DNA of 32,000 bases. It comes from Microcystis aeruginosa NIES-843. GTDB taxonomy: Bacteria > Cyanobacteriota > Cyanobacteriia > Cyanobacteriales > Microcystaceae. The stretch spans positions 3,360,001 to 3,392,000 of the forward strand of contig NC_010296.1 in NCBI RefSeq assembly GCF_000010625.1. Reading direction: 5' to 3'. The stretch's first letter is position 1. Every line of letters starts with the position of its first letter. Under the pieces are notes generated by a model that saw only the letters and a program-made list of their open reading frames with translations, ran no database searches and was not told where the DNA came from. The translations under genes and the position numbers were made by a program. Of this stretch, positions 5,898 through 27,201 are shown piece after piece.

Positions 5898-6137
5898 TTA
5901 AATTCTTTTCTGCCCTCACTTCATCCTCTTTAGCAGTGGCTAAAAATTCCTAGAGTTTAGTTTTGGGAACTAGGGGAAAAGTGCAGGGTAAGCGCATCTT
6001 AACAATCCTTGACAATTGTTAAGCAAAAATCGACCAAATGGGTCGAGTTCGCCCCTACAAAATCGACCCGCCTAAGGGCGGGAAAGAAAAGAAAAAATAG
6101 GGAATGAGGGTAAAAAGGGAAAAAAAGGGGAAAAGGG
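5898..6137. repeat. Repeat R, copy 1: conserved structured 3' flank of the FGE-sulfatase-domain gene
   Basis: 5898-6097 is identical by eye to 10048-10247 (200 bp). A purine-rich tract (pyrimidine-rich on the gene strand) follows and differs only by small indels. It abuts the stop codon at 6138-6140. Confidence 0.85.
6025..6046 (-). terminator. Candidate intrinsic terminator inside repeat R (gene strand)
   Basis: On the minus strand: TCGACC-cattt-GGTCGA followed by TTTTTG. The stem is only 6 bp. The same sequence occurs in copy 2 at 10175-10196. Confidence 0.4.
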
Positions 6138-8756
6138 TTACAGAGTCCTCCCAGCACCGCACACCACCCGAAAACCGTGGTCGGAGCTGACGTTGACGCG
6201 GCGGTCGTGGTCGTTGCGGTAAGCAGAACGGCAGTTAGAAGGATAGAAGTACCAGGAACCGCCCCGCAGAGGAGAACGATTATCATCCCCATTTTCTATC
6301 CAGACACTGCCATCCGTCGGCGCATCCTTATAGTTATCGTGCCAAGTATCGGCACACCATTCCCAGACATTTCCGTGCATATCATAGAGTCCGAAAGCGT
6401 TGGGGGGAAATTTACCAACGGGGGTGGTTTCTTGACGATAAACACCTTTGGGTCCCTGAGCATAAATAGAGAAGTACCAGGAACCGCCCCGCAGAGGAGA
6501 ACGATTATCATCCCCATTTTCTATCCAGACACTGCCATCCGTCGGCGCATCCTTATAGTTATCGTGCCCAGTATCGGCGCACCATTCCCAGACATTTCCG
6601 TGCATATCATAGAGTCCGAAAGCGTTGGGGGGAAATTTACCAACGGGGGTGGTTTCTTGACGATAAACACCTTTGGGTCCCTGAGCATAAATAGAATTGC
6701 CGTCGTAGTTGGCTAAATCCGGGGTGATGGTTTCCCCGAAATAGAAGGGAGTGGTGGTTCCTGCACGACAGGCATATTCCCACTGCGCTTCCGAGGGGAG
6801 GCGATAGTCTCGTCCCGTCGCTTTCGAGAGTCGCATACAGAATTCCACTGCAGCGTACCAAGAGACTTGTTCAACGGGGCGATTATTGCCAGAGAACTTA
6901 GAAGGATTTAAGTCAAGGTCACATTCAATTTTTGGCAGGGAGGCCACTGCTTTCCACTGGGCCTGAGTGATGGGATATTTGCCCATAAAGAAGGCAGGAA
7001 CGGTCACTAGATGTTGGGGACGTTCGTTATCATTTCCTTGTCCATCGGGTGAACCCATCTTGAATTGTCCTGCTGGAATAGCGACCATTTCCAGGGTGAC
7101 ATCATTGCCCAAGTTTTCTGTAAAATACTGCGCTGGTTTCTTTTCCCGTTTGACTTCCTTGCCTCGACTATCGACGGTGACAGCTTGAAAATCAAAAAAT
7201 TGAGCATTACTAGGTAATTGACGACGGAGTTGGTTAAGTTGAGAATGATTGGGATAACGTTCCAACGCAGCATTAAGGTTCGATAAAGCTTCTTGCAATT
7301 GACCTGAATTCAGCAATTTAATGCTACGTTGGTAAAAAGATTCAGCACTCAATTGTTCTGACAATAAACCTTTAACTTGAGTAGCAAGCTGACGACTTTC
7401 TAGTTCTGCCAAACAGTGATGTAATTTATTAAAATACACTTCATCTGCTACGGTAACAACAGGTTTCATCGCTTTAATCGCTTGCTCTAAATTATTAGGA
7501 GGATTTATCCCCCGCAATCGCAACCAAGACTTAACGGAATAATCTAGCTGTTCTCTTGCCCAATTTTTATCAGGCAAAGCAGTTAAACTATCAGCTAAAT
7601 CTAATGCTAATTCAGGCATCCAAGCGGGGCGTTCATTTTCTAAAGCCTCATAAACCTGACGATAGCCAGAAACGATAGTCTTTAATAACTTAGGATCATC
7701 AATACCTCGCATTAAATCGGGTATAAGCTTAGGCAAAATGGGCGGGACATTGTGATGAATTAGGTAGTGAATATCGGCAATCCAACCGCCTACCAGTGAT
7801 TGACATTTGACTAAAAACTGACAGAGATATTCAAAATCCTTAGCCGTAACTTTATACGGTTGAGTCGCTAAATCACTGCTATCGATTCCCGCACTCTTGA
7901 GAGCTTCTTCGTCTTGTAAAATTTTCAAATTAAAGGCATTATCACTCCCATATTGCCGATCAATTTCCTCCAAAGATTTATTTAATTGTTTTGCCAGTTG
8001 CTCTCTTTTTTCTCGCCATTGTCTTGCTCTAATTTTAACAGATTCATAGACAACTTCTCGATAGGGAAGATTAGAAATAATCGATTGATAAAAATATTTT
8101 TGCTGTCCTTCTCCCCAATAGCCCACATTAAGATGAAGATAATCCCCATCAATTTGGGACTCTAAAATTAACATGGGTTCAGATTTTAATAAGGCAAAAA
8201 GACCTATAATAGCCGCACCACCATGATAGCGTTTACTATCCCATCCACCATCAATTAGTTCGATCGGTCTTTCGGTACTTTGAAAAGAATAATGTTGATT
8301 AAAAAATTCCCGTAATCCTTGCGCTAAACCAGTTTCAATATTAGGAAAACTTTTGTTGTTGCCACCAAATTGATCAAAATCGATAACAGGAGGTGCGGGA
8401 ATTATTCTCAGAGAAATTAAATTCTCATCATGATTAGCATTCAAAATTTGATCGGGAACAATTCTCAAAGGCCAGTTTTGAAATAATTTCTGATCTTGAA
8501 CAACTTGACGGGCAGTATTTCGTTGTTCTAGGGCTACTTTTAACTGAGTTTGACGGTTATCTTCAGCAAGTTCTTTCTGCAATTGCTTCTGTTTTTCAAA
8601 TTGCTCTCGCTGAAATTCCTGATTATTTAATTGTTGCCATTTTTGAAATTCCTGTCGCTTATCTTCCAGTTTTTCCGTTGCTTGTCTCGCCAATTGACTA
8701 TTAATTAAATTGATAACCCCATTAACAACATAAAATCCCATTATTTCAGCAGTCAT
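6138..8756 (-). CDS. 872-aa protein: uncharacterised coiled-coil/alpha-beta N-terminal region (~550 aa) + C-terminal FGE-sulfatase (SUMF1)-like domain with an internal 75-aa duplication
   Basis: The C-terminal third (about 6141-7100) reads LEMVAIPAGQFKMGS...RPQHLVTVPAFFMGKYPITQAQW...YRLPSEAQWEYACRAGTTTPFYFG...FGLYDMHGNVWEWCAD...RGGSW, the classic FGE-sulfatase domain pattern. The N-terminus has a Gln/Glu/Lys-rich coiled coil (residues ~20-90) and then sequence I cannot assign. A GGAG-containing RBS precedes the ATG. There is a 28-bp gap to the upstream peptidase gene. Confidence 0.85.
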   Translation of the reverse strand: MTAEIMGFYVVNGVINLINSQLARQATEKLEDKRQEFQKWQQLNNQEFQREQFEKQKQLQKELAEDNRQTQLKVALEQRNTARQVVQDQKLFQNWPLRIVPDQILNANHDENLISLRIIPAPPVIDFDQFGGNNKSFPNIETGLAQGLREFFNQHYSFQSTERPIELIDGGWDSKRYHGGAAIIGLFALLKSEPMLILESQIDGDYLHLNVGYWGEGQQKYFYQSIISNLPYREVVYESVKIRARQWREKREQLAKQLNKSLEEIDRQYGSDNAFNLKILQDEEALKSAGIDSSDLATQPYKVTAKDFEYLCQFLVKCQSLVGGWIADIHYLIHHNVPPILPKLIPDLMRGIDDPKLLKTIVSGYRQVYEALENERPAWMPELALDLADSLTALPDKNWAREQLDYSVKSWLRLRGINPPNNLEQAIKAMKPVVTVADEVYFNKLHHCLAELESRQLATQVKGLLSEQLSAESFYQRSIKLLNSGQLQEALSNLNAALERYPNHSQLNQLRRQLPSNAQFFDFQAVTVDSRGKEVKREKKPAQYFTENLGNDVTLEMVAIPAGQFKMGSPDGQGNDNERPQHLVTVPAFFMGKYPITQAQWKAVASLPKIECDLDLNPSKFSGNNRPVEQVSWYAAVEFCMRLSKATGRDYRLPSEAQWEYACRAGTTTPFYFGETITPDLANYDGNSIYAQGPKGVYRQETTPVGKFPPNAFGLYDMHGNVWEWCADTGHDNYKDAPTDGSVWIENGDDNRSPLRGGSWYFSIYAQGPKGVYRQETTPVGKFPPNAFGLYDMHGNVWEWCADTWHDNYKDAPTDGSVWIENGDDNRSPLRGGSWYFYPSNCRSAYRNDHDRRVNVSSDHGFRVVCGAGRTL
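6245..6694. repeat. Tandem in-frame 225-bp duplication (2 copies) inside the FGE-sulfatase-like domain
   Basis: 6245-6469 and 6470-6694 differ at 2 of 225 positions. Each encodes SIYAQGPKGVYRQETTPVGKFPPNAFGLYDMHGNVWEWCADT(W/G)HDNYKDAPTDGSVWIENGDDNRSPLRGGSWYF. Confidence 0.95.
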
Positions 8757-8784
8757 AAGATTTCCTCTCCCAGATCAACTTTGC

Positions 8785-9606
8785 TCAAGTAGTTTTAAAC
8801 GGCCAAGCTTCCGCCGGTTTATCGGTAATTAAAACCTCCCCGGTCAACTGCTCATTTGCCTGTTCAATTTGTGAACAAGACCAAAACTTTTCCTCATAGG
8901 GAAAATTAGAATCAATCCCCTGATAACCAATAACGTCACCATCGAGATTTCGGCTAACATCGGTTAAAGTAATCGCGTGCCAAGATTGAGAATCGGGATA
9001 GGAAATCGGGTCTAAATCGTGGGCATCTCCGACAAAAACCACGGGACGATTCTCATCTAAAGCATTAGCCAATTCCTGATGGTCAAAACTTGCCCAATGG
9101 GAGGGGATATCATAAGAACTCAAAATTTCTTGATAATCTTCAGGATTTAAAGCACCTCCTCGACCGGGATAGTCTATTTGCAGTTGGTCTGAGAAATTAT
9201 TCGTAATGTCGGGATGAAAACACTGGACAATATTTTCCATGGTTTCGTAACCACAGGTTGGCCCCGTTTGTAAATCTGCCAACAAATGCACATTTCCTAA
9301 CCCCGTAAACCCTAATTCTTGATGGGTAATATCATTAATTAAAGCTTCTGGCGATTCATAATGAAAATCCTGATGGCAGTGGGATACATCTTGCCAAGAC
9401 TCATCAGGTTGATAGTTGAAAGTGGCCTCCATAGTCTCATTTTGCCAATTCCAATACTCTTGATTCGGCATTTCCTGCCAACCGCTTTCGGTTTCCGGCA
9501 GATTCACCTCGGTAAAATCTGGGGAAACTAACTCCAAAGCTTGACTATCTAAAGGGTTAAGCAAATAGTCTTCTGGCGCAAAGCCTTGGCCATAGAGGTC
9601 ATTCAT
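8785..9606 (-). CDS. Papain-fold cysteine peptidase, C39-like (predicted), with an acidic/aromatic N-terminal extension
   Basis: 273-aa ORF. Candidate catalytic residues are Gln113...Cys118 (LQTGPTCGYETMENI), His210 (SWHAITLTD) and Asp232 (GIDSN). This is the Q-x4-C-G ... H-hydrophobic ... D order of C39-like peptidases. A GGAGG RBS lies 7 nt before the ATG. The first ~110 aa are rich in Glu, Asp, Trp and Gln and appear domain-free. Confidence 0.6.
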   Translation of the reverse strand: MNDLYGQGFAPEDYLLNPLDSQALELVSPDFTEVNLPETESGWQEMPNQEYWNWQNETMEATFNYQPDESWQDVSHCHQDFHYESPEALINDITHQELGFTGLGNVHLLADLQTGPTCGYETMENIVQCFHPDITNNFSDQLQIDYPGRGGALNPEDYQEILSSYDIPSHWASFDHQELANALDENRPVVFVGDAHDLDPISYPDSQSWHAITLTDVSRNLDGDVIGYQGIDSNFPYEEKFWSCSQIEQANEQLTGEVLITDKPAEAWPFKTT

Positions 9607-9868
9607 GGTCGCCTCCGCTCCTTGACTGGGGCTATTTTTTAACCTAGAGAATCGGCATCACTAAGTATTTATACTTCGATGATACTCCCAACCCATGAAA
9701 GTCTAGTCTGGACGTTGATAAAAGTTAACTGATGTTGACAGCCTCGGATTTTGGGCGCAAGGCTTCACTGGTGTTAACTTAACGGTTGAGATTCCCTGTT
9801 TTTTTGATGGGTAACAATAAACCTCTCGCATAATTGATTTTTGAGGATTCAAAAACGTCAAAAAGGCG

Positions 9869-9934
9869 GATTAACTGGCAGAAAATCTCTAAATAAACCA
9901 TTTAATTGATTATTACTCATTCTTAATTCTCCTG
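9869..9934. repeat. Repeat U, copy 1: conserved 66-bp block upstream of the peptidase operon
   Basis: gattaactggcagaaaatctctaaataaaccatttaattgattattactcattcttaattctcctg equals 11686-11751 with one mismatch. On the gene strand it reads AGGAGAattaagaATGAGTAATAATCAA... Confidence 0.85.
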
Positions 9935-9977
9935 TCTCCTGTCTCCTGTCTCCTAACGACCGGCTCCTGACTCCTAA
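9929..9977. repeat. STRR-type heptamer array (CTCCTGT/CTCCTGA/CTCCTAA)
   Basis: ctcctgt x3, then ctcctaa, a 7-nt interruption, ctcctga and ctcctaa. The period is 7. Confidence 0.8.
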
Positions 9978-10047
9978 CCCCACCAACAAACTTTTTCAGC
10001 AAACCCTAGTTAATTATTTTCAGCTAGTTGACTAACAACCCATGCTC

Positions 10048-10291
10048 TTAAATTCTTTTCTGCCCTCACTTCATCCTCTTTAGCAGTGGCTAAAAATTCC
10101 TAGAGTTTAGTTTTGGGAACTAGGGGAAAAGTGCAGGGTAAGCGCATCTTAACAATCCTTGACAATTGTTAAGCAAAAATCGACCAAATGGGTCGAGTTC
10201 GCCCCTACAAAATCGACCCGCCTAAGGGCGGGAAAGAAAAGAAAAAAGAAAAAATAGGGAATGAGGGTAAAAGGGGAAAAAGGAAAAAGGG
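10048..10291. repeat. Repeat R, copy 2: conserved structured 3' flank of the TIR-FGE-sulfatase gene
   Basis: Offset of 4150 bp from copy 1. 10048-10247 is identical to 5898-6097. It abuts the stop codon at 10292-10294. Confidence 0.85.
10175..10196 (-). terminator. Candidate intrinsic terminator inside repeat R copy 2 (gene strand)
   Basis: Same TCGACC-cattt-GGTCGA-TTTTT sequence as 6025-6046. Confidence 0.4.
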
Positions 10292-11650
10292 TTAGAGAGT
10301 TCTCCCGAAAACGCAGGCTACCCGAAAACCGTAATTGTTGATGCGGTTGACGCGGCGGAAGTAGTAGTCGTAGCGAATCGCGGAACGGCAGTAATTAGGA
10401 TTGTAGCCCCAGGAACCGCCCCGCAGAGGAGAACGATTATCATTACCATTTTCTATCCAGACACTGCCATCCGTCGGCGCACCGTCATAGTTATCGTGCC
10501 AAGTATCGGCGCACCACTCCCGGACATTGCCGTGCATATCGTACAGTCCAAAGGCGTTTGGGGGAAATTGTCCCACGCGAGTTGTTTCGTTTCGATATTC
10601 TCCGTTCGGTTCATCGGCGTAGGTATTACTGGCATTGTAGTTAGCCAATTCCCCCGTAATGGTTTCCCCAAAGTAAAACGGGGTGGTGGTTCCAGCACGA
10701 CAAGCGTATTCCCATTCCGCTTCACTCGGTAGTCGGTATTCCCGAACCGTTAGTTTTGATAATCTCGCACAGAATTCGATCGCATCGTACCAGTTGACTT
10801 GTTCCACGGGACGGCGATCGCTATCGGGACGGTCTTTAAAATAGGCTGGCTTGAAATCAAGGTCTTGTTTAACTTTTAAATCCGTGCGAGAGGCGATCGC
10901 TTTCCACTGGGCCTGGGTGATGGGGTATTTACCCATAAAGAAGGGTGGGACAGTTACTTCATGTTGTGGTCTTTCCCTTCTAAATCCTTCCCAATTAAAT
11001 TTTTTAACCAGTCTTTCGATTTCCTCATCTTCTGTTCCCATCAGGAAAGTTCCCCCCGGAATGGCGACCATTTCTAAGGTGATGCCTTTGCCCAGATCTT
11101 CCCTGAAATATTGGGACTGTTTCGACTCTTTTCTAATTTGCTCACCCTTCGCATTTACTCCCACCACCTCAAAGTTAAATACTGATAACAGTTGTTTTGG
11201 CTCTTCCGGTTCAAGCTTGAACTGATAGCCAATTGCTCTTTCTAGTTGCTCAAATCCGTCTTCTTCCCAATAATCAAGCCGGTGAATATCTCGCAGATTC
11301 AAGCTAACTTCTGCAAGTCGCAGATCAGGAATTTCGCATTCTTCTAACCTCATGGGAATAAAAAAAATTGTCCCCGGTAGCATCTCTCCCAAGGTATCAA
11401 GTGCAATCCTCAACTCCCGTTGGATGTATCCCTGCTTATTAGCTGATTTCGCTGACAGACAGGCGAGAAAAATCTGACTAGCTTTAATCGCTTTCGGAAT
11501 TTCATCTCGCCAAATTTGACCCGGAATCAGGTCTTTTTTATCCAACCAAGGTTTATATCCCGCTTGCTTAAGGCGGTCATACAGTGCCAAAACTGCTGGT
11601 TTGTCCTCACTGGCATGGGCCAAGAAAATTTGGATCTCTGACTTTTTCAT
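10292..11650 (-). CDS. TIR domain + FGE-sulfatase (SUMF1)-like domain fusion protein
   Basis: The N-terminus IQIFLAHASEDKPAVLALYDRLKQAGYKPWLDKKDLIPGQIWRDEI...IFLACLSAKSANKQGYIQRELRIAL is a bacterial TIR (TIR_2-type) pattern with candidate catalytic Glu79. The C-terminal part (about 10295-11090) is a paralogue of the 6138-8756 C-terminus (LEMVAIPGGTFLMG...RPQHEVTVPPFFMGKYPITQAQW...YRLPSEAEWEYACRAGTTTPFYFG...RGGSW). Confidence 0.9.
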   Translation of the reverse strand: MKKSEIQIFLAHASEDKPAVLALYDRLKQAGYKPWLDKKDLIPGQIWRDEIPKAIKASQIFLACLSAKSANKQGYIQRELRIALDTLGEMLPGTIFFIPMRLEECEIPDLRLAEVSLNLRDIHRLDYWEEDGFEQLERAIGYQFKLEPEEPKQLLSVFNFEVVGVNAKGEQIRKESKQSQYFREDLGKGITLEMVAIPGGTFLMGTEDEEIERLVKKFNWEGFRRERPQHEVTVPPFFMGKYPITQAQWKAIASRTDLKVKQDLDFKPAYFKDRPDSDRRPVEQVNWYDAIEFCARLSKLTVREYRLPSEAEWEYACRAGTTTPFYFGETITGELANYNASNTYADEPNGEYRNETTRVGQFPPNAFGLYDMHGNVREWCADTWHDNYDGAPTDGSVWIENGNDNRSPLRGGSWGYNPNYCRSAIRYDYYFRRVNRINNYGFRVACVFGRTL

Positions 11651-11685
11651 AACTTTTTCTTATGACCACAAGTAGGGGAGAGCCA

Positions 11686-11751
11686 GATTAACTGGCATAA
11701 AATCTCTAAATAAACCATTTAATTGATTATTACTCATTCTTAATTCTCCTG
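11686..11751. repeat. Repeat U, copy 2: conserved 66-bp block upstream of the TIR gene
   Basis: gattaactggcataaaatctctaaataaaccatttaattgattattactcattcttaattctcctg. See 9869-9934. Confidence 0.85.
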
Positions 11752-11892
11752 ACTACTGTCTCCTGCCTCCTGACTACTGTCTCCTGACTACTGCCTACTG
11801 TCTCCTGACTACTGCCTACTGTCTCCTGACTACTGTCTCCTGTCTCGGAGTCTCCTGACTACTGCCTACTGTCTCCTGACTACTGCCTACTG
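11746..11892. repeat. STRR-type heptamer array (CTCCTGA/CTACTGC/CTACTGT), ~21 units
   Basis: ctcctga ctactgt ctcctgc ctcctga ctactgt ctcctga ctactgc ctactgt ... The period is 7, with one short interruption (ctcggag). Confidence 0.85.
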
Positions 11893-12032
11893 AATCCTCA
11901 CCAACCACGACAATTTGGGATTTTTACAGCAAGTCCACTTTCTCACTTTCCCCACCCGTGACCTTTTTCCGTTAGATTATAAATGGATACAAAACTTAAC
12001 ATTTTATCCAGAATCTACCGAGAGGGCAGACC

Positions 12033-21615: not shown

Positions 21616-21867
21616 ATGAATATTCAACTCGTGGAATCTCTAGTTAAGGCAATTAAATCCTTGTCCCTAGAAGAACAAGAATTGTTAGGAAAAAAACTCA
21701 AAGATCACCCCTCTTGGGAAATTGCATTAGAACGAATTGACGCAACTCGAAAAGCCATTTATGAACGTCGTCAGGGAAACCCATTTAAAACCGATGTTAC
21801 TGAAATTATTCATCAAATGAGAGAAGAAAGAGATCGGCAATTGATGGAAGAAATTGTGAGTGAATAG
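21616..21867 (+). CDS. Putative antitoxin partner of the PIN toxin (family not recognised)
   Basis: 83-aa ORF that ends 8 nt before the PIN-domain gene. The size and position are typical of a type II antitoxin. I recognise no DNA-binding fold from the sequence. Confidence 0.55.
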   Translation: MNIQLVESLVKAIKSLSLEEQELLGKKLKDHPSWEIALERIDATRKAIYERRQGNPFKTDVTEIIHQMREERDRQLMEEIVSE

Positions 21868-21875
21868 AGAAAATA

Positions 21876-22307
21876 ATGACTAATACATTTATCTGTGTTG
21901 ATTCTAGTTTTATAGTTCGTTTAACAACGGTTGAACCTTCTGTAACAATGTACAGTCAACTCTGGCAAAAATGGATGACCGAGGAAAATTTAGTGATTGC
22001 ACCAACTTTATTATGTTACGAAGTCACTAACGTATTTTATCGTCTGAAAAAAGCTGGTCAAATTTTGGAGACGGAAGCGCAAACCCTCCTTACAGAAGTC
22101 TTAGATTTACCCATTCAGTTTCATGGAGATCATTACCTCCATTACCAAGCAATAGAAATTTCGCAAACCTTGAATCTTCCTGCTACTTATGATGCCCATT
22201 ATCTAGTATTAGCTCAACGATTTCAAGCAAATTTATACACTAGCGATAAACGCTTATTTAACAGCGTTAAATCTTCTCTAAGTTGGGTTCATTTGGTTGA
22301 AGTGTAG
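21876..22307 (+). CDS. vapC: Type II toxin, PIN domain (VapC family)
   Basis: 143-aa ORF with the four PIN acidic residues in the canonical order: D9 (ICVDSSF), E49 (CYEVTN), D106 (TYDAHYL) and D124 (LYTSDKRL). Confidence 0.85.
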   Translation: MTNTFICVDSSFIVRLTTVEPSVTMYSQLWQKWMTEENLVIAPTLLCYEVTNVFYRLKKAGQILETEAQTLLTEVLDLPIQFHGDHYLHYQAIEISQTLNLPATYDAHYLVLAQRFQANLYTSDKRLFNSVKSSLSWVHLVEV

Positions 22308-22375: not shown

Positions 22376-22538
22376 AAAAGTCGAGCTAGTTTTGCTTACG
22401 GGGGGATATGACTTTAAACGGGTTATTTCTCGGTTATCCAAGCGGTTGAGAGAAGAAAGAGATCGGCAATTGATGGAAGAAATTGTGATAGAGAAAATCA
22501 TGACTAATACATTTATCTGTGTTGATTTTAGTTTTATA
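22376..22538 (+). pseudogene. Decayed second copy of the antitoxin/toxin locus (leader fused to antitoxin 3' end + first ~13 toxin codons)
   Basis: 22376-22446 matches the leader 21420-21490. 22447-22538 matches 21818-21914 (antitoxin codons REERDRQLMEEIV, then MTNTFICVD.SF) with a 5-nt deletion. Homology stops where the palindromic element at 22546 begins. Confidence 0.75.
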
Positions 22539-22545
22539 AATTCTT

Positions 22546-22660
22546 GTAGGGTGCGTGTTTGCGGCGATAATCTCTGAGAAAAAACCAATTAATAATCCGC
22601 ACCCCACGCACCAACTTAATTATTAAATGGGTGCGTTACGCTTTGGCTAACGCACCCTAC
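22546..22660. mobile_element. Small palindromic MITE-like element with 11-bp terminal inverted repeats
   Basis: GTAGGGTGCGT at 22546-22556 and ACGCACCCTAC at 22650-22660. An internal 10-bp-stem hairpin GGGTGCGTTA-cgctttggc-TAACGCACCC lies at 22629-22657. It truncates the decayed TA copy. Confidence 0.5.
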
Positions 22661-22812
22661 GATTGATGTTTCTGTTTGTGGCTAAGTTGACAAAAGTTGC
22701 TCAAAATATAGCCTTAGCAAGATAAATCGGCCTATTCCTAGTTAACCTGAGTTGAGGATAAGCCGAAACCCTAATTTTACCCTAGCTGGTTAGCTCTATT
22801 CTTTCGTGAAAG

Positions 22813-25800
22813 TCATGACCAAATCTTCTTAGTCCGATAATTTTTTGTACCAATCCCATCACACAAACCCCTATCCTCCTCCCTAACATCAGAATTAGGA
22901 TTGTGCAAATAAACCCGCACCCAATCGCAACTACGCCCCATTAAAGCATCTAAATTCAATAAATTCGAGTCTGTTTCTACCTTCCAGAGTTTGATAGTGT
23001 TGTCCCAACTACCGCTCACCAAAGTCTTGCCGTTGGGACTAAAATTAACGCTTCTGACACGGCTATTATGCCCATGGAGGGTACGGATTTCTTGGCGTTT
23101 TTCTACATTCCAGAGTTTGATAGTTTTGTCATCACTACCGCTCACCAAAGTCTTGCCGTTAGGACTAAAATTAACGCTTCTGACAGGACCATCATGCCCC
23201 TTGAAGGTGTGGATTTCTTGGCGTTTTTCTACATCCCAGAGTTTGATAGTCTTATCATAACTACCGCTCACCAAAGTCTCGCCGTTGGGACTAAAATTAA
23301 CGCTTCTGACACGGTCATGATGCCCCTCGAAGGTGTGGATTTCTTCGCCTGTCTCTACATTCCAGAGTGTGATAGTCTTGTTATCACTACCGCTCACCAA
23401 AGTCTTGCCGTCGGGACTAAAATTAACGCTTCTGACACGGCCATCATGCCCCTGGAAGCCATGGAAGGTGGGGATTTCCTTGCCTGTTTTTACATTCCAG
23501 AGTTTGATAGTACCGTCCCAACTACCGCTCACCAAAGTCTCGCCGTTGGGACTAAAATTAACGCTTCTGACAAGGCCACCATGCCCCTTGAGGGTGTGGA
23601 TTTTTTTGCCTGTTTTTACATCCCAGAGTATGATAGTCTTGTCATCACTACCGCTCACCAAAGTCTTGCCGTCGCGACTAAAATTAACGCTTCTGACAGG
23701 GTAATCATGCCCATGGAGGGTGCGGATTTCTTCGCCTGTTTTTACATCCCAGAGCTTGATAGTCCCGTCATCACTACCGCTCACCAAAGTCTTGCCCTCG
23801 TCAGGATTAAACTCAACGCTATTGACAAGGTCATCATGCCCCTTGAGGGTTTGGACTATTTCTACATTCCAGAGTTTGATAGTCCCGTCATCACTACCGC
23901 TCACCAAAGTCTTGCCCTCGTCAGGACTAAAATTAACGCTCCAGACAGGGCCTTCATGCCCCTTGAGGGTGAGGATTTCTTGGCCTGTTGACTCATTCCA
24001 GAGTTTGATGGTGTTGTCCCAACTACCGCTCACCAAAGTCTTGCCGTCGCGACTAAAATTAACGCTTCTGACACGGCTATTATGCCCCTTGAGGGTGCGG
24101 ATTTCTTGGGGTTTTTCTACATTCCAGAGTTTGATAGTCTTGTCACCACTACCGCTCACCAAAGTCTTACCGTCGTGACTAAAATTAACGCTATAGACAG
24201 GGCCACCATGCCCCTTGAGGGTACGGATTTCTTGGCCTGTTTCTACATTCCAGAGTTTGATAGTCTTGTCACCACTACCGCTCACCAAAGTCTTGCCGTT
24301 GCGACTAAAATTAACGCTATAGACAGGGCCTTCATGCACCTTGAGGGTGCGGATTTCTTGGGGTTTTTCTACATCCCAGAGTTTGATAGTTTTGTCATCA
24401 CTACCGCTCACCAAAGTCTTGCCGTCACGACTAAAATTAACGCTATAGACAGTGCCACCATGCCCCTTGAGGGTACGGATTTCTTGGCCTGTTTCTACAT
24501 TCCAGAGTTTGATAGTTTTGTCATCACTACCGCTCACCAAAGTCTTGCCGTCACGACTAAAATTAACGCTATAGACAGGGCCACCATGCCCCTTGAGGGT
24601 ACGGATTTCTTGGCCTGTTTCTACATTCCAGAGTTTGATAGTTTTGTCATCACTACCGCTCACCAAAGTCTTGCCGTCACGACTAAAATTAACGCTATGG
24701 ACATAGCTACCATGCCCTTCTAAGCGATTGCGTTCACTTTTCCGGTTGAGAAGTTCCTGTAAGGCATTCATCACCTCCTTGTCGGATGCCTGCTGCTTTT
24801 GTAGAGTTTTTCCTGCCTTAATTGCTTCAACGAAAGCATCTAATTCTTTTCCTCTATCAAACAAAGACAAGGAAGAAAACCCGCGAGCATTTGCCAGATT
24901 GAGTTCCGCTTGTTGTGTTTGTTTCCAAGCCATCAAACCCAATCCCGTACTAACCACCACCGCCACCAAGGAACCCGCCGCAATCCCCCAAGCGGTTCTA
25001 ATTTCGCGCCGCCTGCGGGCTGCTTCGGCTTGTTTTATCCGTTCTCGCTCCTGGAGACTCTGCCTGATAAAATCCTGTTCACTTTGGCTGATATCTTCTG
25101 GGCGTTGCCTCAATTGTTCTTCTGCCTCTGCCAACGCCGCCCCGCGCAACCATGAGCCTTCATCCCCTTGCGTCTTCTGCCATTGCCCCATCGCCCCCCG
25201 CAAACGCTCTTGCCAAGCGCGAAAAACCCTGTCTGTATCCATCCAGCCCCGCAATTCCCCCCAATTGCGAATCAGTGCTTCATGCACCACTTCCACCGTC
25301 TCCACCTGTGCCTCTTCACTGCGACTGGTGACAACTAAACGCGCATCCGCCAATTGTTTCACCAGCGCCCAATTTACCGCCCCCAATTCCGCTTTTGTCG
25401 CCAGCCGCCGCGTATCTTCTGTGCCTTCTCCTGGGCGCACCAATTGGATGAAAATGCGCCGCATCTGTTCCCGTTGCGCCTCACTCAGCTTGTCATATTC
25501 TTCATTGGCATGGCGGGCCAAAGCACCCTGCACTTGGCCAATTTCTGTATATGCCAGATGGGTTAACTGTTGGCCCTGTCGCCGCTGCCACAATTCCGTT
25601 AAGGCAAACTCTAGTAATGGCAAATTCCCCGGCTCACTCTCCACATCATCGAGGATGCGCTCCACCAGTCCCGCTTCAAATGTCACCCCCAATTTTTGCG
25701 CCGGTTTTTCAATAACTTCTGTGAGTTCTTCTCGGTTCATCGGCCCCAATTTCAAATCAGTATTTTGTAAGACATCGGCAAAGGGACGATAGGAAAGAGC

Positions 25801-26514
25801 ATTCCCCAAGAAATCCGCCCGCATAGTTAATACCAACACCATTCCTACCCTTTCAAAGGGGAATGTAGTTAATTTATCGAGAAAATTACGGCGGATTGTT
25901 TCATCAGGACAGAGGGTATAAAGTTCCTCAAATTGGTCGGCAATTAGCAGTACCCGTTCACTGGGATAATTGTGTTGGATTTGGGCAAAAACATCAGCTA
26001 AAGGAATGTCGCCATCACGCAAATAATTGGCTAACTGACGCGCTTGGGCGAGGCAGTCTGTCTCATTTAAATTAGTTGTATAAAGGGGAACTAATGCCAA
26101 AGCTAGGGCATGAAAAGGGTCAGAACCGGGACGAAAATGGGTAAACTGCCAGTGACCTTCTTGTTGCAATTTAGGGACTAATCCCGCAAAAACCACCGAG
26201 GATTTACCACTTCCCGACGCACCTAATAGGGGGATAAAATTACGGGTTTGGGTTGCCTGAAATAGGGTTTTAATAAAGCTTTTGCGCCCAAAAAAGTATT
26301 CTGCATCTCCTGGCCCAAAATGAAACAAGCCACGATAGGGACAGGGCAGTTTATCATCGGCAACATCGGCAGAATCAGCAGGGGCTATTCTTGCTTCTTC
26401 TCGATAATAGTAATTGGTAATCGTGATGGTTGCATTGCCAGTCCCAGAGGTAGCAGCATATTGAGCTTCTGTAATATTTTGTTGAATTTCGCTTGGTTCT
26501 GACATATCAACCAT
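22813..26514 (-). CDS. STAND/NLR-like P-loop ATPase + TM segment + 14 WD40 repeats, with a short N-terminal Gly/Asn/Thr-rich motif
   Basis: 1233-aa ORF. It has CPYRGLFHFGPGDAEYFFGRKSF followed by Walker A GASGSGKSS (26197-26223) and Walker B-like VLLIADQFEELY. From memory this matches the clade Aravind and colleagues called nSTAND1. A hydrophobic 24-mer TAWGIAAGSLVAVVVSTGLGLMAW lies at 24925-24996 after RRRREIR. From residue 600 there are 14 x ~42-aa WD40 units (GH..V.SVNFS.DGKTLVSGS.DKTIKLW). The C-terminal tail CDWVRVYL..NP......DR.LCDGI is common in cyanobacterial WD40 proteins. Confidence 0.9.
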   Translation of the reverse strand: MVDMSEPSEIQQNITEAQYAATSGTGNATITITNYYYREEARIAPADSADVADDKLPCPYRGLFHFGPGDAEYFFGRKSFIKTLFQATQTRNFIPLLGASGSGKSSVVFAGLVPKLQQEGHWQFTHFRPGSDPFHALALALVPLYTTNLNETDCLAQARQLANYLRDGDIPLADVFAQIQHNYPSERVLLIADQFEELYTLCPDETIRRNFLDKLTTFPFERVGMVLVLTMRADFLGNALSYRPFADVLQNTDLKLGPMNREELTEVIEKPAQKLGVTFEAGLVERILDDVESEPGNLPLLEFALTELWQRRQGQQLTHLAYTEIGQVQGALARHANEEYDKLSEAQREQMRRIFIQLVRPGEGTEDTRRLATKAELGAVNWALVKQLADARLVVTSRSEEAQVETVEVVHEALIRNWGELRGWMDTDRVFRAWQERLRGAMGQWQKTQGDEGSWLRGAALAEAEEQLRQRPEDISQSEQDFIRQSLQERERIKQAEAARRRREIRTAWGIAAGSLVAVVVSTGLGLMAWKQTQQAELNLANARGFSSLSLFDRGKELDAFVEAIKAGKTLQKQQASDKEVMNALQELLNRKSERNRLEGHGSYVHSVNFSRDGKTLVSGSDDKTIKLWNVETGQEIRTLKGHGGPVYSVNFSRDGKTLVSGSDDKTIKLWNVETGQEIRTLKGHGGTVYSVNFSRDGKTLVSGSDDKTIKLWDVEKPQEIRTLKVHEGPVYSVNFSRNGKTLVSGSGDKTIKLWNVETGQEIRTLKGHGGPVYSVNFSHDGKTLVSGSGDKTIKLWNVEKPQEIRTLKGHNSRVRSVNFSRDGKTLVSGSWDNTIKLWNESTGQEILTLKGHEGPVWSVNFSPDEGKTLVSGSDDGTIKLWNVEIVQTLKGHDDLVNSVEFNPDEGKTLVSGSDDGTIKLWDVKTGEEIRTLHGHDYPVRSVNFSRDGKTLVSGSDDKTIILWDVKTGKKIHTLKGHGGLVRSVNFSPNGETLVSGSWDGTIKLWNVKTGKEIPTFHGFQGHDGRVRSVNFSPDGKTLVSGSDNKTITLWNVETGEEIHTFEGHHDRVRSVNFSPNGETLVSGSYDKTIKLWDVEKRQEIHTFKGHDGPVRSVNFSPNGKTLVSGSDDKTIKLWNVEKRQEIRTLHGHNSRVRSVNFSPNGKTLVSGSWDNTIKLWKVETDSNLLNLDALMGRSCDWVRVYLHNPNSDVREEDRGLCDGIGTKNYRTKKIWS
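22945..24717. repeat. 126-bp coding tandem repeats (WD40 units), several nearly identical at DNA level
   Basis: The units at 24454-24579 and 24580-24705 are almost base-for-base identical. There are 14 units overall. They also create the long spurious antisense ORFs in the track (23068-23991, 24082-24723 and others). Confidence 0.9.
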
Positions 26515-26536
26515 CCTGATTAATTAAAATACAGTC

Positions 26537-26941
26537 TCAGTCATCCTTAGATGTGCCATGCTCGGTGATGCCGCTAATACTAGCATTACCCGTGCCAGAG
26601 GTAGCAGCATATTTAACATTACTGATATTTTGGGTGATAATTTGTTGTCCACCGGGTTGTTCTTGGAGCTTGTCTAGTAAATCTTGGGCTAATTTAGTGA
26701 TTTCATTATCTTTATCAACCCCCGCTTCGACAATTTTATCTTTTAACAAACCTTCAGCTTTCTTGATATCCTCTGGTTTTGCCTCTACCATTGCCTGTGC
26801 TAAAGCATCATTAGCAAACTTACGCTTAATCAAGGTTTTCAAACCTTGATATGTATCTTTAACGCCTTTTTCCGCCGTATCTTTAGCCGCAGCAACCGCA
26901 CCGGCAGTCAAGGCGGCGATAATCAGAGAAACTGGTTCCAT
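26537..26941 (-). CDS. Small helical protein with a hydrophobic N-terminal helix and a C-terminal motif shared with the downstream STAND ATPase (candidate Bell/HeLo-like effector)
   Basis: 134-aa ORF. Residues 3-19 (PVSLIIAALTAGAVAAA) are hydrophobic and Ala/Gly-rich. The middle is a Lys/Asp/Glu/Ala/Leu-rich sequence of helical character. The tail is QNISNVKYAATSGTGNASISGIT. The stop is 22 bp upstream of the STAND start on the same strand. Confidence 0.7.
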   Translation of the reverse strand: MEPVSLIIAALTAGAVAAAKDTAEKGVKDTYQGLKTLIKRKFANDALAQAMVEAKPEDIKKAEGLLKDKIVEAGVDKDNEITKLAQDLLDKLQEQPGGQQIITQNISNVKYAATSGTGNASISGITEHGTSKDD

Positions 26942-27201
26942 TGTTTGATACTCCCAATAAAATATTGCTGATTCAATCTTAGATCAAAACAATTTTTAAT
27001 AGTAAGCCAAATCGCAATCAGCTAGAGAACTGGAATTTCACGGCCAAGGCACTAAACCTTAAAATTATTACTATGTAGGATTTGCTGAATAAATGTGAAA
27101 TGTAGGCAAGGTAGGGGCTTTCTGGCTTTTCTCTGGAAACAGGTGCAAGATTTTGAGAGAATCGTGCTTCAAAACCTTGCGTCTTCATCGGCCCGCGTCC
27201 T

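Follow-up and report, generated by a model that had tools for sequence, protein, structure and literature searches.

Two neighboring genes of Microcystis aeruginosa NIES-843, one for a 134-residue protein (effector) and one for an nSTAND1/WD40 protein (receptor), probably constitute a self-contained regulated-cell-death module of the Bell-effector/amyloid-signaling-motif/STAND-receptor type (Table 1). All positions refer to the window, i.e., the whole stretch of 32,000 nucleotides that was analyzed (NC_010296.1, positions 3,360,001 to 3,392,000). The original prediction had read the genes as an effector/NLR-type amyloid-motif pair, and those parts of this reading that can be tested on the sequence are supported. 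As predicted, the genes are co-oriented and 22 bp apart, and no terminator-like site was found on the coding strand of this gap. The receptor probably starts at Met4 (ATG at 26505), since the sequence AGGA is located 8 nt upstream and the orthologues begin with MSE or MSK, and the gap would therefore amount to 31 nt. A VapBC-like pair adjoins the two genes; apart from this, their surroundings in the window revealed neither a defense island nor a phage context. Moreover, no copy of the module was found on viral contigs, there was no phage linkage, and PADLOC gave no match for the effector.

Table 1. Features of the effector/receptor locus (window positions; aa, residues of the encoded protein).
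Feature	Position	Strand	Evidence or remark
Effector gene, 134 aa: Bell/HetE-N domain and C-terminal signaling tail	26537..26941	-	ORF check in window; Pfam PF20701
Helical Bell/HetE-N domain, aa 1-106, N-terminal helix M-E-P-VSLIIAALTAGAVAAA	26624..26941	-	AF2, hydropathy
Effector-side motif IITQNISNVKYAATSGTGNASISGIT, aa 101-126, 26 aa	26564..26641	-	BLASTP and orthologue conservation
Intergenic gap, 22 nt	26515..26536	.	AGGA 8 nt before ATG 26505
Receptor gene, 1233 aa: motif, nSTAND1 NTPase, helical linker, TM helix, 14 WD40 repeats, Cys-pair cap	22813..26514	-	ORF check in window
Receptor-side motif EIQQNITEAQYAATSGTGNATITITN, aa 9-34, 26 aa, then conserved junction YYYREE	26413..26490	-	BLASTP and orthologues
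nSTAND1 NTPase domain, aa 59-452	25159..26340	-	PF20703, 409.7 bits
Predicted transmembrane helix WGIAAGSLVAVVVSTGLGLMAW, aa 509-530, RRRREIR just before	24925..24990	-	Kyte-Doolittle hydropathy 2.0
14 WD40 repeats (two propellers)	22969..24729	-	Pfam WD40 x14
C-terminal cap GRSCDWVRVYLHNPNSDVREEDRGLCDGIG, two conserved cysteines	22849..22938	-	Also in orthologues

A BLASTP comparison of the two proteins resulted in a sole significant HSP, between effector residues 102-123 and receptor residues 10-31 (15/22 identical, 19/22 positive, E = 1e-6); all remaining HSPs had E > 0.4, which agrees with the prediction that nothing else in the proteins is alike. The local score of this match is 77 compared to a mean of 36.3 for shuffled sequences (sd 5.2, maximum 60; z = 7.9), and given both the E-value and the shuffle control the match is not due to chance. 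Direct counting reproduced the predicted 14 of 20 identical residues with three additional Ser/Thr swaps, and the predicted identical DNA run of 19 nt was recovered as aatatgctgctacctctgg; the motif region had been placed correctly, its exact ends being off by a few nucleotides. The motif is rich in T, I, A, N, S, G and Q, lacks P and L and contains one K, and a similar composition was reported for BASS motifs (Dyrka et al., 2020, bioRxiv 10.1101/2020.01.06.895854). Each side keeps its own consensus, SG[ST]GN...SISGI in the effector versus SATGN...TITITNYYY in the receptor. In the AF2 models, pLDDT is below 50 for the effector-side motif and 24-32 for receptor residues 1-54, where the motif sits on a disordered N-terminal stretch, and no beta structure is predicted for either copy, which is expected for such motifs and gives no positive evidence for amyloid.

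The recurrence of the motif pair, C-terminal in the effector and N-terminal in the receptor as originally proposed, is borne out by approximately 30 genomes from at least 14 cyanobacterial genera (28 loci, 25 of them distinct, plus the loci L032 and L033), in which the two genes are co-oriented and adjacent every time. Across these genera, conservation within the effector is highest in the tail, with a mean pairwise identity among orthologues of 83% versus 47% for the helical domain. The 19-nt identity is specific to Microcystis; in the other genera the motif copies differ in their codons and share identical DNA runs of at most 5-14 nt, showing that the similarity is kept at the peptide level. 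A tail that is conserved to this degree compared to the fold while its codons diverge indicates that selection acts on the peptide. Only effector and receptor are conserved across the loci, without a conserved third gene near the pair, suggesting that the module is self-contained. Microcystis is a bloom-forming cyanobacterium, and several of its strains carry decayed alleles of the module.

The suggested comparison of the effector with Bell/HeLo-like profiles assigned it to the Bell/HetE-N family. The single sequence scores 25.8 bits for PF20701, barely above the cutoff of 25; it has 238 homologues, with PF20701 present in 120 of 120 among the matches listed. A profile search (3519 representatives) also retrieved Bell proteins with BASS3 tails (GVQ[VI]GDHNTQxNTF) and BASS6-like tails at E-values of about 1e-22, the core strings of the BASS3 tails being those given by Dyrka et al. 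(2020) in their Table S2. AF2 models residues 1-106 as a helical bundle (helices 3-19, 25-41, 46-52, 56-61, 63-73, 79-93 and 98-106; pLDDT 83-93) followed by a disordered tail. In accordance with the predicted hydrophobic N-terminal helix, an acidic residue at position 2 precedes a hydrophobic stretch (M-E-P-VSLIIAAL; Kyte-Doolittle hydropathy 2.26 for residues 4-18). An acidic residue at position 2-3 and a hydrophobic helix are the Bell signature (Dyrka et al., 2020), and by its sequence this helix bears the signature of membrane-disrupting domains of the HeLo/Bell/MLKL type. A Foldseek search of the effector against the PDB gave no match (best E = 2.3), so that a likeness of the fold to HeLo, MLKL or Bab is unproven.

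For the receptor, the predicted STAND-WD40 ATPase stands as far as the STAND NTPase and the WD40 repeats are concerned; it belongs to the nSTAND1 clade and not to NACHT/NB-ARC, and it has a transmembrane helix in addition. Judged by its sequence the NTPase domain is intact, with Walker A (GASGSGKSS) and Walker B (LLIADQFEE) motifs that are invariant in homologues (columns G98-S106 and D193-E197). A predicted transmembrane helix is conserved at residues 480-540 in 112/119 homologues; it is flanked by 5.8 K+R on its N-side versus 1.65 on its C-side, in 37/37 distinct segments, and one homologue carries an SLH domain C-terminal of the helix. The receptor thus appears to cross the membrane once in a predicted N-in/C-out orientation, which would place the WD40 sensor outside the cytoplasm, probably in the periplasm. 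The 14 WD40 repeats are near-identical and are encoded by a 126-bp tandem array (13.7 copies, 86% matches, 22971-24696; TRF). Of 41 long homologues, 23 have a C...C cap.

The expectation that the two motif copies co-vary within pairs did not hold within the motif family: owing to the invariant core, partners resemble each other no more closely (12.08 of 26 positions) than non-partners do (11.83; permutation p = 0.06). Co-variation is visible only between motif families. Bell homologues with other tails adjoin nSTAND1 receptors bearing those tails at the N-terminus (L034/L036/L038, L039 with 17/18 identical residues, and L044), and one receptor chassis carries at least five N-terminal motif classes. 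As far as these sequences tell, the motif is exchanged as a matched pair among homologous modules. In every motif class the receptor copy, but not the effector copy, is succeeded by a conserved aromatic junction, NY[YF]Y(R)EE.

The shared stretch might instead be a short adaptor without amyloid, activating the effector by recruitment or release and not by templated cross-beta conversion, e.g., via beta-strand pairing in a stoichiometric complex or via competition for a single NTPase docking site. This would be in line with the side-specific consensus, the absence of within-pair co-variation, the lack of AF2 structure for either copy and the receptor-only junction, which hints at a receptor-specific structural role. 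However, length, composition, position and gene layout are those of experimentally amyloid- or prion-forming motifs, bona fide BASS3 tails occur in the same effector family, and a 26-residue motif with a core devoid of charge and proline and with alternating beta-branched residues has a makeup typical of a beta-arch; we regard such an adaptor as unlikely.

Far less probable is a common targeting or processing signal for one protease, chaperone, modifying enzyme or membrane-insertion factor, in the manner of EACC1-caspase, in which a protease licenses the effector. Small pore-formers of the EACC1 type likewise have their genes 5' of those for STAND-type partners, and some EACC1 systems contain nSTAND1. 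However, neither effector nor receptor has an EACC1 or protease Pfam match at E<=1, the ~58 residues preceding the NTPase domain leave no space for a peptidase domain, no third gene is conserved nearby, and matched-pair swapping of motif classes fits partner recognition and not one common enzyme. That the similarity is a functionless relic of the fission of a fused Bell-NLR gene, of local duplication or of gene conversion is hardly credible, although the 19-nt run in Microcystis, the known fused Bell-NLR architectures and the decayed alleles in some strains would suit it. No other part of the effector is as conserved as the motif in at least 14 genera, and synonymous sites have diverged, a pattern that argues for purifying selection on both peptides and not for recent conversion or drift; the identity difference between tail and fold together with the codon divergence largely refutes this origin.

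The Bell-effector/amyloid-motif module has its closest counterparts in the Bell/BASS/NLR pairs of filamentous bacteria (Dyrka et al., 2020), which share the repetition of the effector's motif at the N-terminus of an adjacent collinear STAND-repeat protein, the small intergenic distance and the motif composition, and which are found in cyanobacteria including Microcystis. However, the motif strings YAAT, NISNVK and TITNYY are not in Table S2 of that study (BASS1-10 and unassigned pairs) and the best alignment to any of its examples is weak (z ~3), as anticipated for a motif outside the named BASS families; moreover, the screen demanded NACHT or NB-ARC receptors, whereas the Microcystis receptor combines nSTAND1 with a transmembrane helix. 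One tag on both proteins is the hallmark of a known class of amyloid-relay cell-suicide systems, and the module appears to be of this kind, but its motif class is uncatalogued and its receptor seems to be anchored in the membrane. In Bab/Agp (BASS11; Ibarlosa et al., 2024, bioRxiv 10.1101/2024.11.07.622273), likewise, the effector is small, helical and related to Bell, its N-terminal helix is hydrophobic and an amyloid motif lies at its C-terminus; the adjacent sensor, which has the motif N-terminally, activates it. In contrast to the Microcystis STAND NTPase, the Bab/Agp sensor is TPR-GreA/B-C-PIN, cytoplasmic and encoded in a prophage defense island, and the motif family differs. The fungal HET-S/NWD2 system (like HELLP/PNT1, sigma and PP) follows the same logic, the N-terminal motif of a WD40 NLR templating the C-terminal prion-forming domain of a neighboring HeLo-type pore-former, and its WD repeats are also very similar to each other. 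However, it is eukaryotic with a soluble NACHT receptor, the HET-s tail has two pseudo-repeats compared to a single repeat on each side in Microcystis, and the HeLo fold belongs to the fungal effector, whereas the Microcystis effector is likened to it by its sequence signature. EACC1-caspase systems (Kaur et al., 2020, PMC7159879; Evans et al., 2025, bioRxiv 10.1101/2025.11.14.688446) also place a small membrane-active protein 5' of a large sensor, sometimes with an nSTAND1 NTPase, and are enriched in multicellular bacteria; there, the partner's caspase domain activates by proteolysis, whereas the Microcystis pair has a shared terminal motif.

Prion and fibril formation was shown for BASS1 and BASS3, as was conversion of the Bell-side motif by the NLR-side motif (Dyrka et al., 2020). 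For Bab/Agp, an abortive-infection system of E. coli under amyloid control, it was proven experimentally that such a pair causes phage-triggered death (Ibarlosa et al., 2024). By analogy to HET-S/NWD2, BASS1/BASS3 and Bab/Agp, we infer amyloid formation, templating and toxicity for the Microcystis pair. A cue at the probably periplasmic WD40 domain would cause the cytoplasmic NTPase to oligomerize at the inner membrane face in an NTP-dependent manner, and the clustered N-terminal motifs would form a cross-beta nucleus serving as the template on which the effector tail adopts this fold. This would free the N-terminal helix of the effector to permeabilize the membrane and kill the cell, so that the module may serve abortive infection or a colony-level or kin-level cell death.

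As judged from its sequence, the module behaves as a Bell/BASS/NLR pair in the testable defining features, and its motif represents an uncatalogued class as far as it was compared, BASS being the bacterial amyloid signaling motif families (Dyrka et al., 2020). Systems of this kind are known, and the present one stands out by an uncatalogued motif class, another STAND clade and a receptor that probably spans the membrane. The original prediction of a Bell effector, a STAND receptor, a shared terminal motif and a conserved gene pair is supported on the points that can be tested in this way. The genes encoding the 134-aa effector and the 1233-aa receptor are both located on the minus strand, and the ORF coordinates bear out that they are co-oriented and separated by 22 nt, with no terminator in the gap. 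A BLASTP comparison of both proteins resulted in a single significant HSP, aligning effector residues 102-123 with receptor residues 10-31 (15/22 identical, E=1e-6). Every other HSP had E>0.4, confirming that the two proteins share no further significant similarity. In local alignment the pair scored 77, compared with 36.3 ± 5.2 (maximum 60) when the effector sequence was shuffled 500 times. The original count of 14 identical residues out of 20 plus three Ser/Thr swaps is right, the 19-nt identical DNA run between the motif copies is present, and both copies exist as described, but the nucleotide coordinates first reported for them were a few bases off (see the table for the positions).

Features of the module and of its surroundings, with the matched tails of sister modules found in other genomes
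Feature	Residues, sequence or content	Window position (nt)	Strand
Effector ORF	134 aa	26537..26941	-
Receptor ORF	1233 aa	22813..26514	-
Effector-side motif, 26 residues	aa 101-126, IITQNISNVKYAATSGTGNASISGIT	26564-26641	-
Receptor-side motif, 26 residues	aa 9-34, EIQQNITEAQYAATSGTGNATITITN	26413-26490	-
Aromatic junction of the receptor	aa 35-40	26395-26412	
Hydrophobic segment of the receptor	aa 509-530, WGIAAGSLVAVVVSTGLGLMAW	24925-24990	-
VapBC-like pair	83-aa antitoxin-like ORF and PIN-domain toxin	21616-22307	+
Partial VapBC-like duplicate	antitoxin C-terminus and toxin N-terminus (ERDRQLMEEIVIEKIMTNTFICVDFSFI)	22392-22577	+
TIR/FGE gene	TIR and C-terminal FGE-sulfatase (C-type-lectin-fold)	10292-11650	-
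TPR-like/FGE gene	872 aa, TPR-like and C-terminal FGE-sulfatase	6138-8756	-
Perfect 200-nt repeat		5898-6097 = 10048-10247	
Short repeat arrays	CTCCTGA / CTACTGT-type, 21-nt spacing	9864-9978, 11681-11922	
'23S rRNA-intervening-sequence protein' gene	PF05635	13562-13942	+
Sister module L034/L036/L038	matched tail QTQTNT..GGDFxFxPVQ		
Sister module L039	matched tail INIGQGAKGNIGQNVIGS, 17/18 identical		
Sister module L044	matched tail BASS3-like KY..F..EVKG..VG		

Next to the position of the motif, its composition fits the BASS/FASS bias. Both copies together (52 residues) contain T10 I9 A7 N6 S5 G5 Q4, no P, no L and one K, and BASS motifs are enriched in N/Q/G and β-branched residues and depleted in P/L/K (Dyrka et al., 2020, bioRxiv 10.1101/2020.01.06.895854). 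The BASS/FASS layout, i.e., a matched motif of ~20-25 residues at the effector C-terminus and at the N-terminus of the adjoining receptor, was seen in ~30 loci, and the collinear, closely spaced genes are likewise in agreement with this class. In orthologous pairs the motif copies are 112-334 nt apart. Translation of the receptor probably starts at Met4 (ATG 26505), making the Met1 start (window 26505-26514) probably wrong, since a Shine-Dalgarno-like AGGA is present 8 nt upstream of ATG 26505 and the orthologues begin with MSE or MSK, mostly MSE.

For the effector, Pfam PF20701 (HetE-N) was matched with 25.8 bits, barely over the cutoff of 25, and among the matches listed the precomputed PF20701 label is present on 120 of 120 effector homologues. 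AF2 modeling with a 17-sequence alignment predicted seven helices within residues 3-106 (pLDDT 83-93) and an unstructured tail from residue 108 (pLDDT <50), in agreement with the size and all-α fold of a Bell domain (N-terminal domain of ~100 residues in a protein of 120-140 aa). At the effector N-terminus, MEPVSLIIAALTAGAVAAAKD / M-E-P-VSLIIAALTAGAVAAA, an acidic second residue is followed by a hydrophobic stretch (Kyte-Doolittle 2.26 over residues 4-18). This is the signature of Bell, HeLo, MLKL and RPW8-type domains, in which residue 2 or 3 is acidic and the N-terminal helix hydrophobic (Dyrka et al., 2020). Searching 1.84 billion representatives with the family profile yielded 3519 proteins at E<=1e-3. 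Many of the 150 top-scoring ones carry BASS3 tails (...GVQ[VI]GDHNTQxNTF) or BASS6-like tails (...ERSIAIGG...) at ~1e-22, and the core strings of the BASS3 tails are identical to those in Table S2 of Dyrka et al. (2020). As its profile relatives bear these tails, the effector domain is the Bell domain of the Saupe/Dyrka nomenclature. The sequence homology to the Bell family (Dyrka et al., 2020), corresponding to PF20701, was judged by Pfam and the family profile, the original seed ONI86675.1 lying outside the comparison. The proposed check against Bell-like and EACC-type profiles thus gave PF20701 and no EACC1 Pfam match at E<=1.

A structural link of the effector to HeLo, MLKL or Bab could not be shown, because the closest PDB match of the effector model in Foldseek had an E of 2.3 and none of the three was matched, and a profile search of PDB sequences with the effector family returned nothing relevant. 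PADLOC and NCBIfam gave no match for the effector and repeat-driven matches only for the receptor. The context described by Kaur et al. for the Bell/HetE-N domain was later shown by experiment to be that of Bab/Agp. The Bell-type effector P0129 (158 aa) has two different motifs one behind the other, first a YAATS-type and then a QSQTNT..GDLNFSPVQ-type tail, and could answer two receptors.

The strings YAAT, NISNVK and TITNYY are not contained in Table S2 of Dyrka et al. (2020), and the QTQTNT and GQGAKG motifs of the sister modules are likewise missing from it. Of 34 examples of BASS3-10 to which the motif was aligned, the best was a cyanobacterial BASS3 variant, 'AGTGNTQ', which has 'GTGN' in common with it. 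Its z of ~3 falls short of significance once multiple testing is taken into account. BASS1, BASS2 and BASS11 were outside this comparison, and BASS1 and BASS2 are specific for Actinobacteria (Dyrka et al., 2020). Within BASS3-10 and Table S2, the motif is indeed not assignable to a named BASS family, as had been stated originally. The receptors catalogued by Dyrka et al. (2020) are of the NACHT/NB-ARC type, whereas the Microcystis receptor is nSTAND1, and the published screen demanded a NACHT or NB-ARC Pfam domain in the neighbor, which is likely the reason why the motif is missing from the catalogue. None of the papers found by literature searches names the motif, nor do the later motif-detection papers among them mention it, and unpublished profile sets may include it.

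A scan of one genome per species, built from same-motif sequences, resulted in 44 related loci. The same motif is present on both sides of adjacent co-oriented genes in 28 of the 44 (25 distinct) as well as in L032 and L033, showing that the gene pair with its motif is conserved, as predicted, in about 30 homologous loci. These pairs are distributed over Microcystis, Nostoc, Cronbergia, Anabaena, Microcoleus, Kamptonema, Scytonema, Crocosphaera, Lusitaniella, Richelia, Symploca, Mastigocoleus, Phormidium and picocyanobacterial MAGs. Only the two genes themselves are conserved across the loci (41/44 and 39/44), the flanks being syntenic within Microcystis only. Both sides have the invariant skeleton I-x-Q-...-[YI]-A-A-T-S-x-x-G-x-A-x-I in common, with the consensus ...ISNVKYAATSG[ST]G[NTD]ASISxI[TN]E for the effector side and ...[VI]T[EG][AS]EYAATSATG[ND]ATITITNYYYREE for the receptor side. 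A motif-only profile gave 22 matches in a set of 5.8 billion proteins, all of them short fragments. Within the effector, conservation is highest in the tail (mean pairwise identity 83% vs. 47% for residues 21-95), while the codons differ between the motif copies and among orthologues, the longest identical run between copies being 5-14 nt outside Microcystis. This shows that selection acts on the peptide and not on DNA or RNA.

The predicted co-variation of partners was not seen within the family, with 12.08 vs. 11.83 of 26 positions for partners and non-partners (permutation p=0.06), as the shared core hardly varies and true partners thereby have no excess identity. Between families, however, tail and receptor N-terminus are swapped jointly: Bell homologues with other tails adjoin nSTAND1 receptors bearing those same tails (sister modules in the table). 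On one receptor chassis at least five N-terminal motif classes were found among the 120 closest receptor homologues, the YAATS-motif class being the commonest among the close homologues sampled.

These data also bear on other explanations for the shared motif. Gene conversion as origin of the similarity was rejected, as only Microcystis has the long run of identical DNA, and so was a DNA- or RNA-level element, as synonymous sites diverge and the peptide is invariant. That the similarity is a functionless relic is contradicted by purifying selection and hardly credible. A shared processing or targeting signal, e.g., for proteolytic licensing of the EACC1 type, is very improbable: EACC1-caspase systems contain EACC1 in the small protein and a caspase/peptidase in the partner, whereas here neither is present (no Pfam match at E<=1), and the loci have no conserved third gene. 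EACC1/protease licensing was rejected on the domain content of both proteins. This also applies to an EAD-type globular adaptor, as EAD coupling proceeds via a shared globular Death-like α-helical adaptor (Kaur et al., 2020), whereas here 22-26 residues are shared, predicted to be disordered on both proteins. The motif might act as an adaptor by non-amyloid strand pairing, which we consider unlikely.

The receptor contains an nSTAND1 domain (PF20703, residues 59-452, 409.7 bits) and 14 WD40 repeats, so that the partner is the STAND-WD40 ATPase that had been predicted. The WD40 repeats are encoded by 13.7 tandem copies of a 126-bp unit with 86% matches. The Walker A motif GASGSGKSS and the Walker B motif DQFEE are invariant among receptor homologues, and with intact Walker motifs and C-terminal repeats the protein is an NLR-like STAND of the nSTAND1 and not of the NACHT/NB-ARC clade. 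Directly after the N-terminal motif, receptors of all motif classes contain an aromatic junction, NY[YF]Y(R)EE, which is absent from the effector side. The AF2 model of receptor residues 1-620 is of moderate quality (mean pLDDT 63.6), uninformative for the membrane helix and unstructured at residues 1-54 (pLDDT 24-32).

In between the NTPase and the repeats a hydrophobic segment is located (Kyte-Doolittle 2.0), preceded by RRRREIR. A segment with a hydropathy >=1.6 is present at residues 480-540 in 112 of 119 receptor homologues >560 aa, with diverging sequence. In all 37 of 37 distinct segments the 15 flanking residues contain more K+R on the N-side than on the C-side (5.84 vs. 1.65), therefore following the positive-inside pattern of an N-in/C-out anchor. 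In one receptor homologue (P0303) the WD40 repeats are replaced by an S-layer-homology (SLH) domain after the helix (PF00395, 40.6 bits). To our knowledge, this domain is known only outside the cytoplasm. In WD40-type receptors a C-terminal cap with two conserved cysteines is often present. Because the helix is conserved, its flanks are positive-inside and an SLH domain follows it in one homologue, the receptor is probably a single-pass membrane protein with the motif and the NTPase cytoplasmic at the membrane and the sensor outside, in the periplasm. The literature searched contained no description of a transmembrane nSTAND1 receptor. The predicted topology, a membrane-spanning NLR-type receptor with a repeat sensor outside the cytoplasm, would be unusual for an NLR-type protein and suggests envelope sensing.

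The mechanism is proposed by analogy to the experimentally studied BASS1/BASS3, Bab/Agp and HET-S/NWD2 systems. A cue at the WD40 domain would drive NTP-dependent oligomerization of the receptor, the clustered N-terminal motifs would form a cross-β nucleus templating the effector tail, and the Bell N-terminal helix thereby set free would permeabilize the membrane resulting in cell death. For BASS1 and BASS3, prion behavior in Podospora and fibrils were reported, and NLR-side motifs convert Bell-side motifs (Dyrka et al., 2020). Bab/Agp mediates amyloid-controlled abortive infection, its effector being interchangeable with HET-S (Ibarlosa et al., 2024, bioRxiv 10.1101/2024.11.07.622273). As a tentative extension of the amyloid relay, which is possible though not the probable case, a transmembrane NLR with an envelope-side WD40, SLH or other sensor might transmit an extracytoplasmic cue to the cytoplasmic STAND NTPase. 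The NTPase would then nucleate an amyloid relay on the inner side of the membrane, the very site at which the putative pore-forming effector would act. The cue might be a phage adsorbing or injecting, a damaged envelope or a signal sent by colony neighbors. If true, this would be receptor-kinase-like, outside-in NLR signaling that relies on an amyloid motif class not catalogued before, and it would be widespread, occurring in Nostocales as well as in bloom-forming Microcystis.

In the surroundings of the module, a VapBC-like pair is located directly downstream of the receptor and is followed by its partial duplicate. Two FGE genes elsewhere in the window are ~75-80% alike at their 3' ends (region 5898-11650), each followed by the same perfect 200-nt repeat, and short repeat arrays are present upstream of the two FGE-domain gene clusters. 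The FGE genes are similar to genes that diversity-generating retroelements target in conflict systems, but a reverse transcriptase was not seen in the window. The '23S rRNA-intervening-sequence protein' gene is located between HlyD-type membrane-fusion and AcrB-type transporter genes.

In several Microcystis strains the module is present at one chromosomal site adjoining a P-type ATPase gene (L001-L004, L009 and L011 compared with window 22600-27100). Intact WD40 alleles differing in repeat content are found in the window and L002, and an allele encoding a 610-613-aa receptor with another post-TM region and without WD40 is the commonest in the database. In L003 the receptor is lost after 28 residues, and L004, L009 and L011 have a common 1.4-kb deletion with one end inside the effector motif, at nt 26621, and the other at receptor residue ~425, nt 25241, in addition to frameshifts. 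The best full effector match is also from Microcystis (100% in M. ichthyoblabe FBCC-A1114). A scan of viral contigs gave no relatives and thus no indication of carriage by phages or of phage decoys.

The occurrence at one site of alleles that are intact, sensor-swapped or decayed is a pattern typical of immunity or allorecognition loci in populations. The module is therefore a candidate system for regulated cell death when blooms collapse, or for phage resistance. Outside-in signaling by a transmembrane NLR combined with amyloid templating would, if confirmed, be of high interest, and with two 25-mers and an effector of only 134 aa the module is directly accessible to biochemistry. Bacterial amyloid signaling would reach past the catalogue, as the NACHT/NB-ARC screen missed a whole set of Bell/nSTAND1 modules, and for Microcystis, an ecologically important cyanobacterium, the module gives a concrete candidate.
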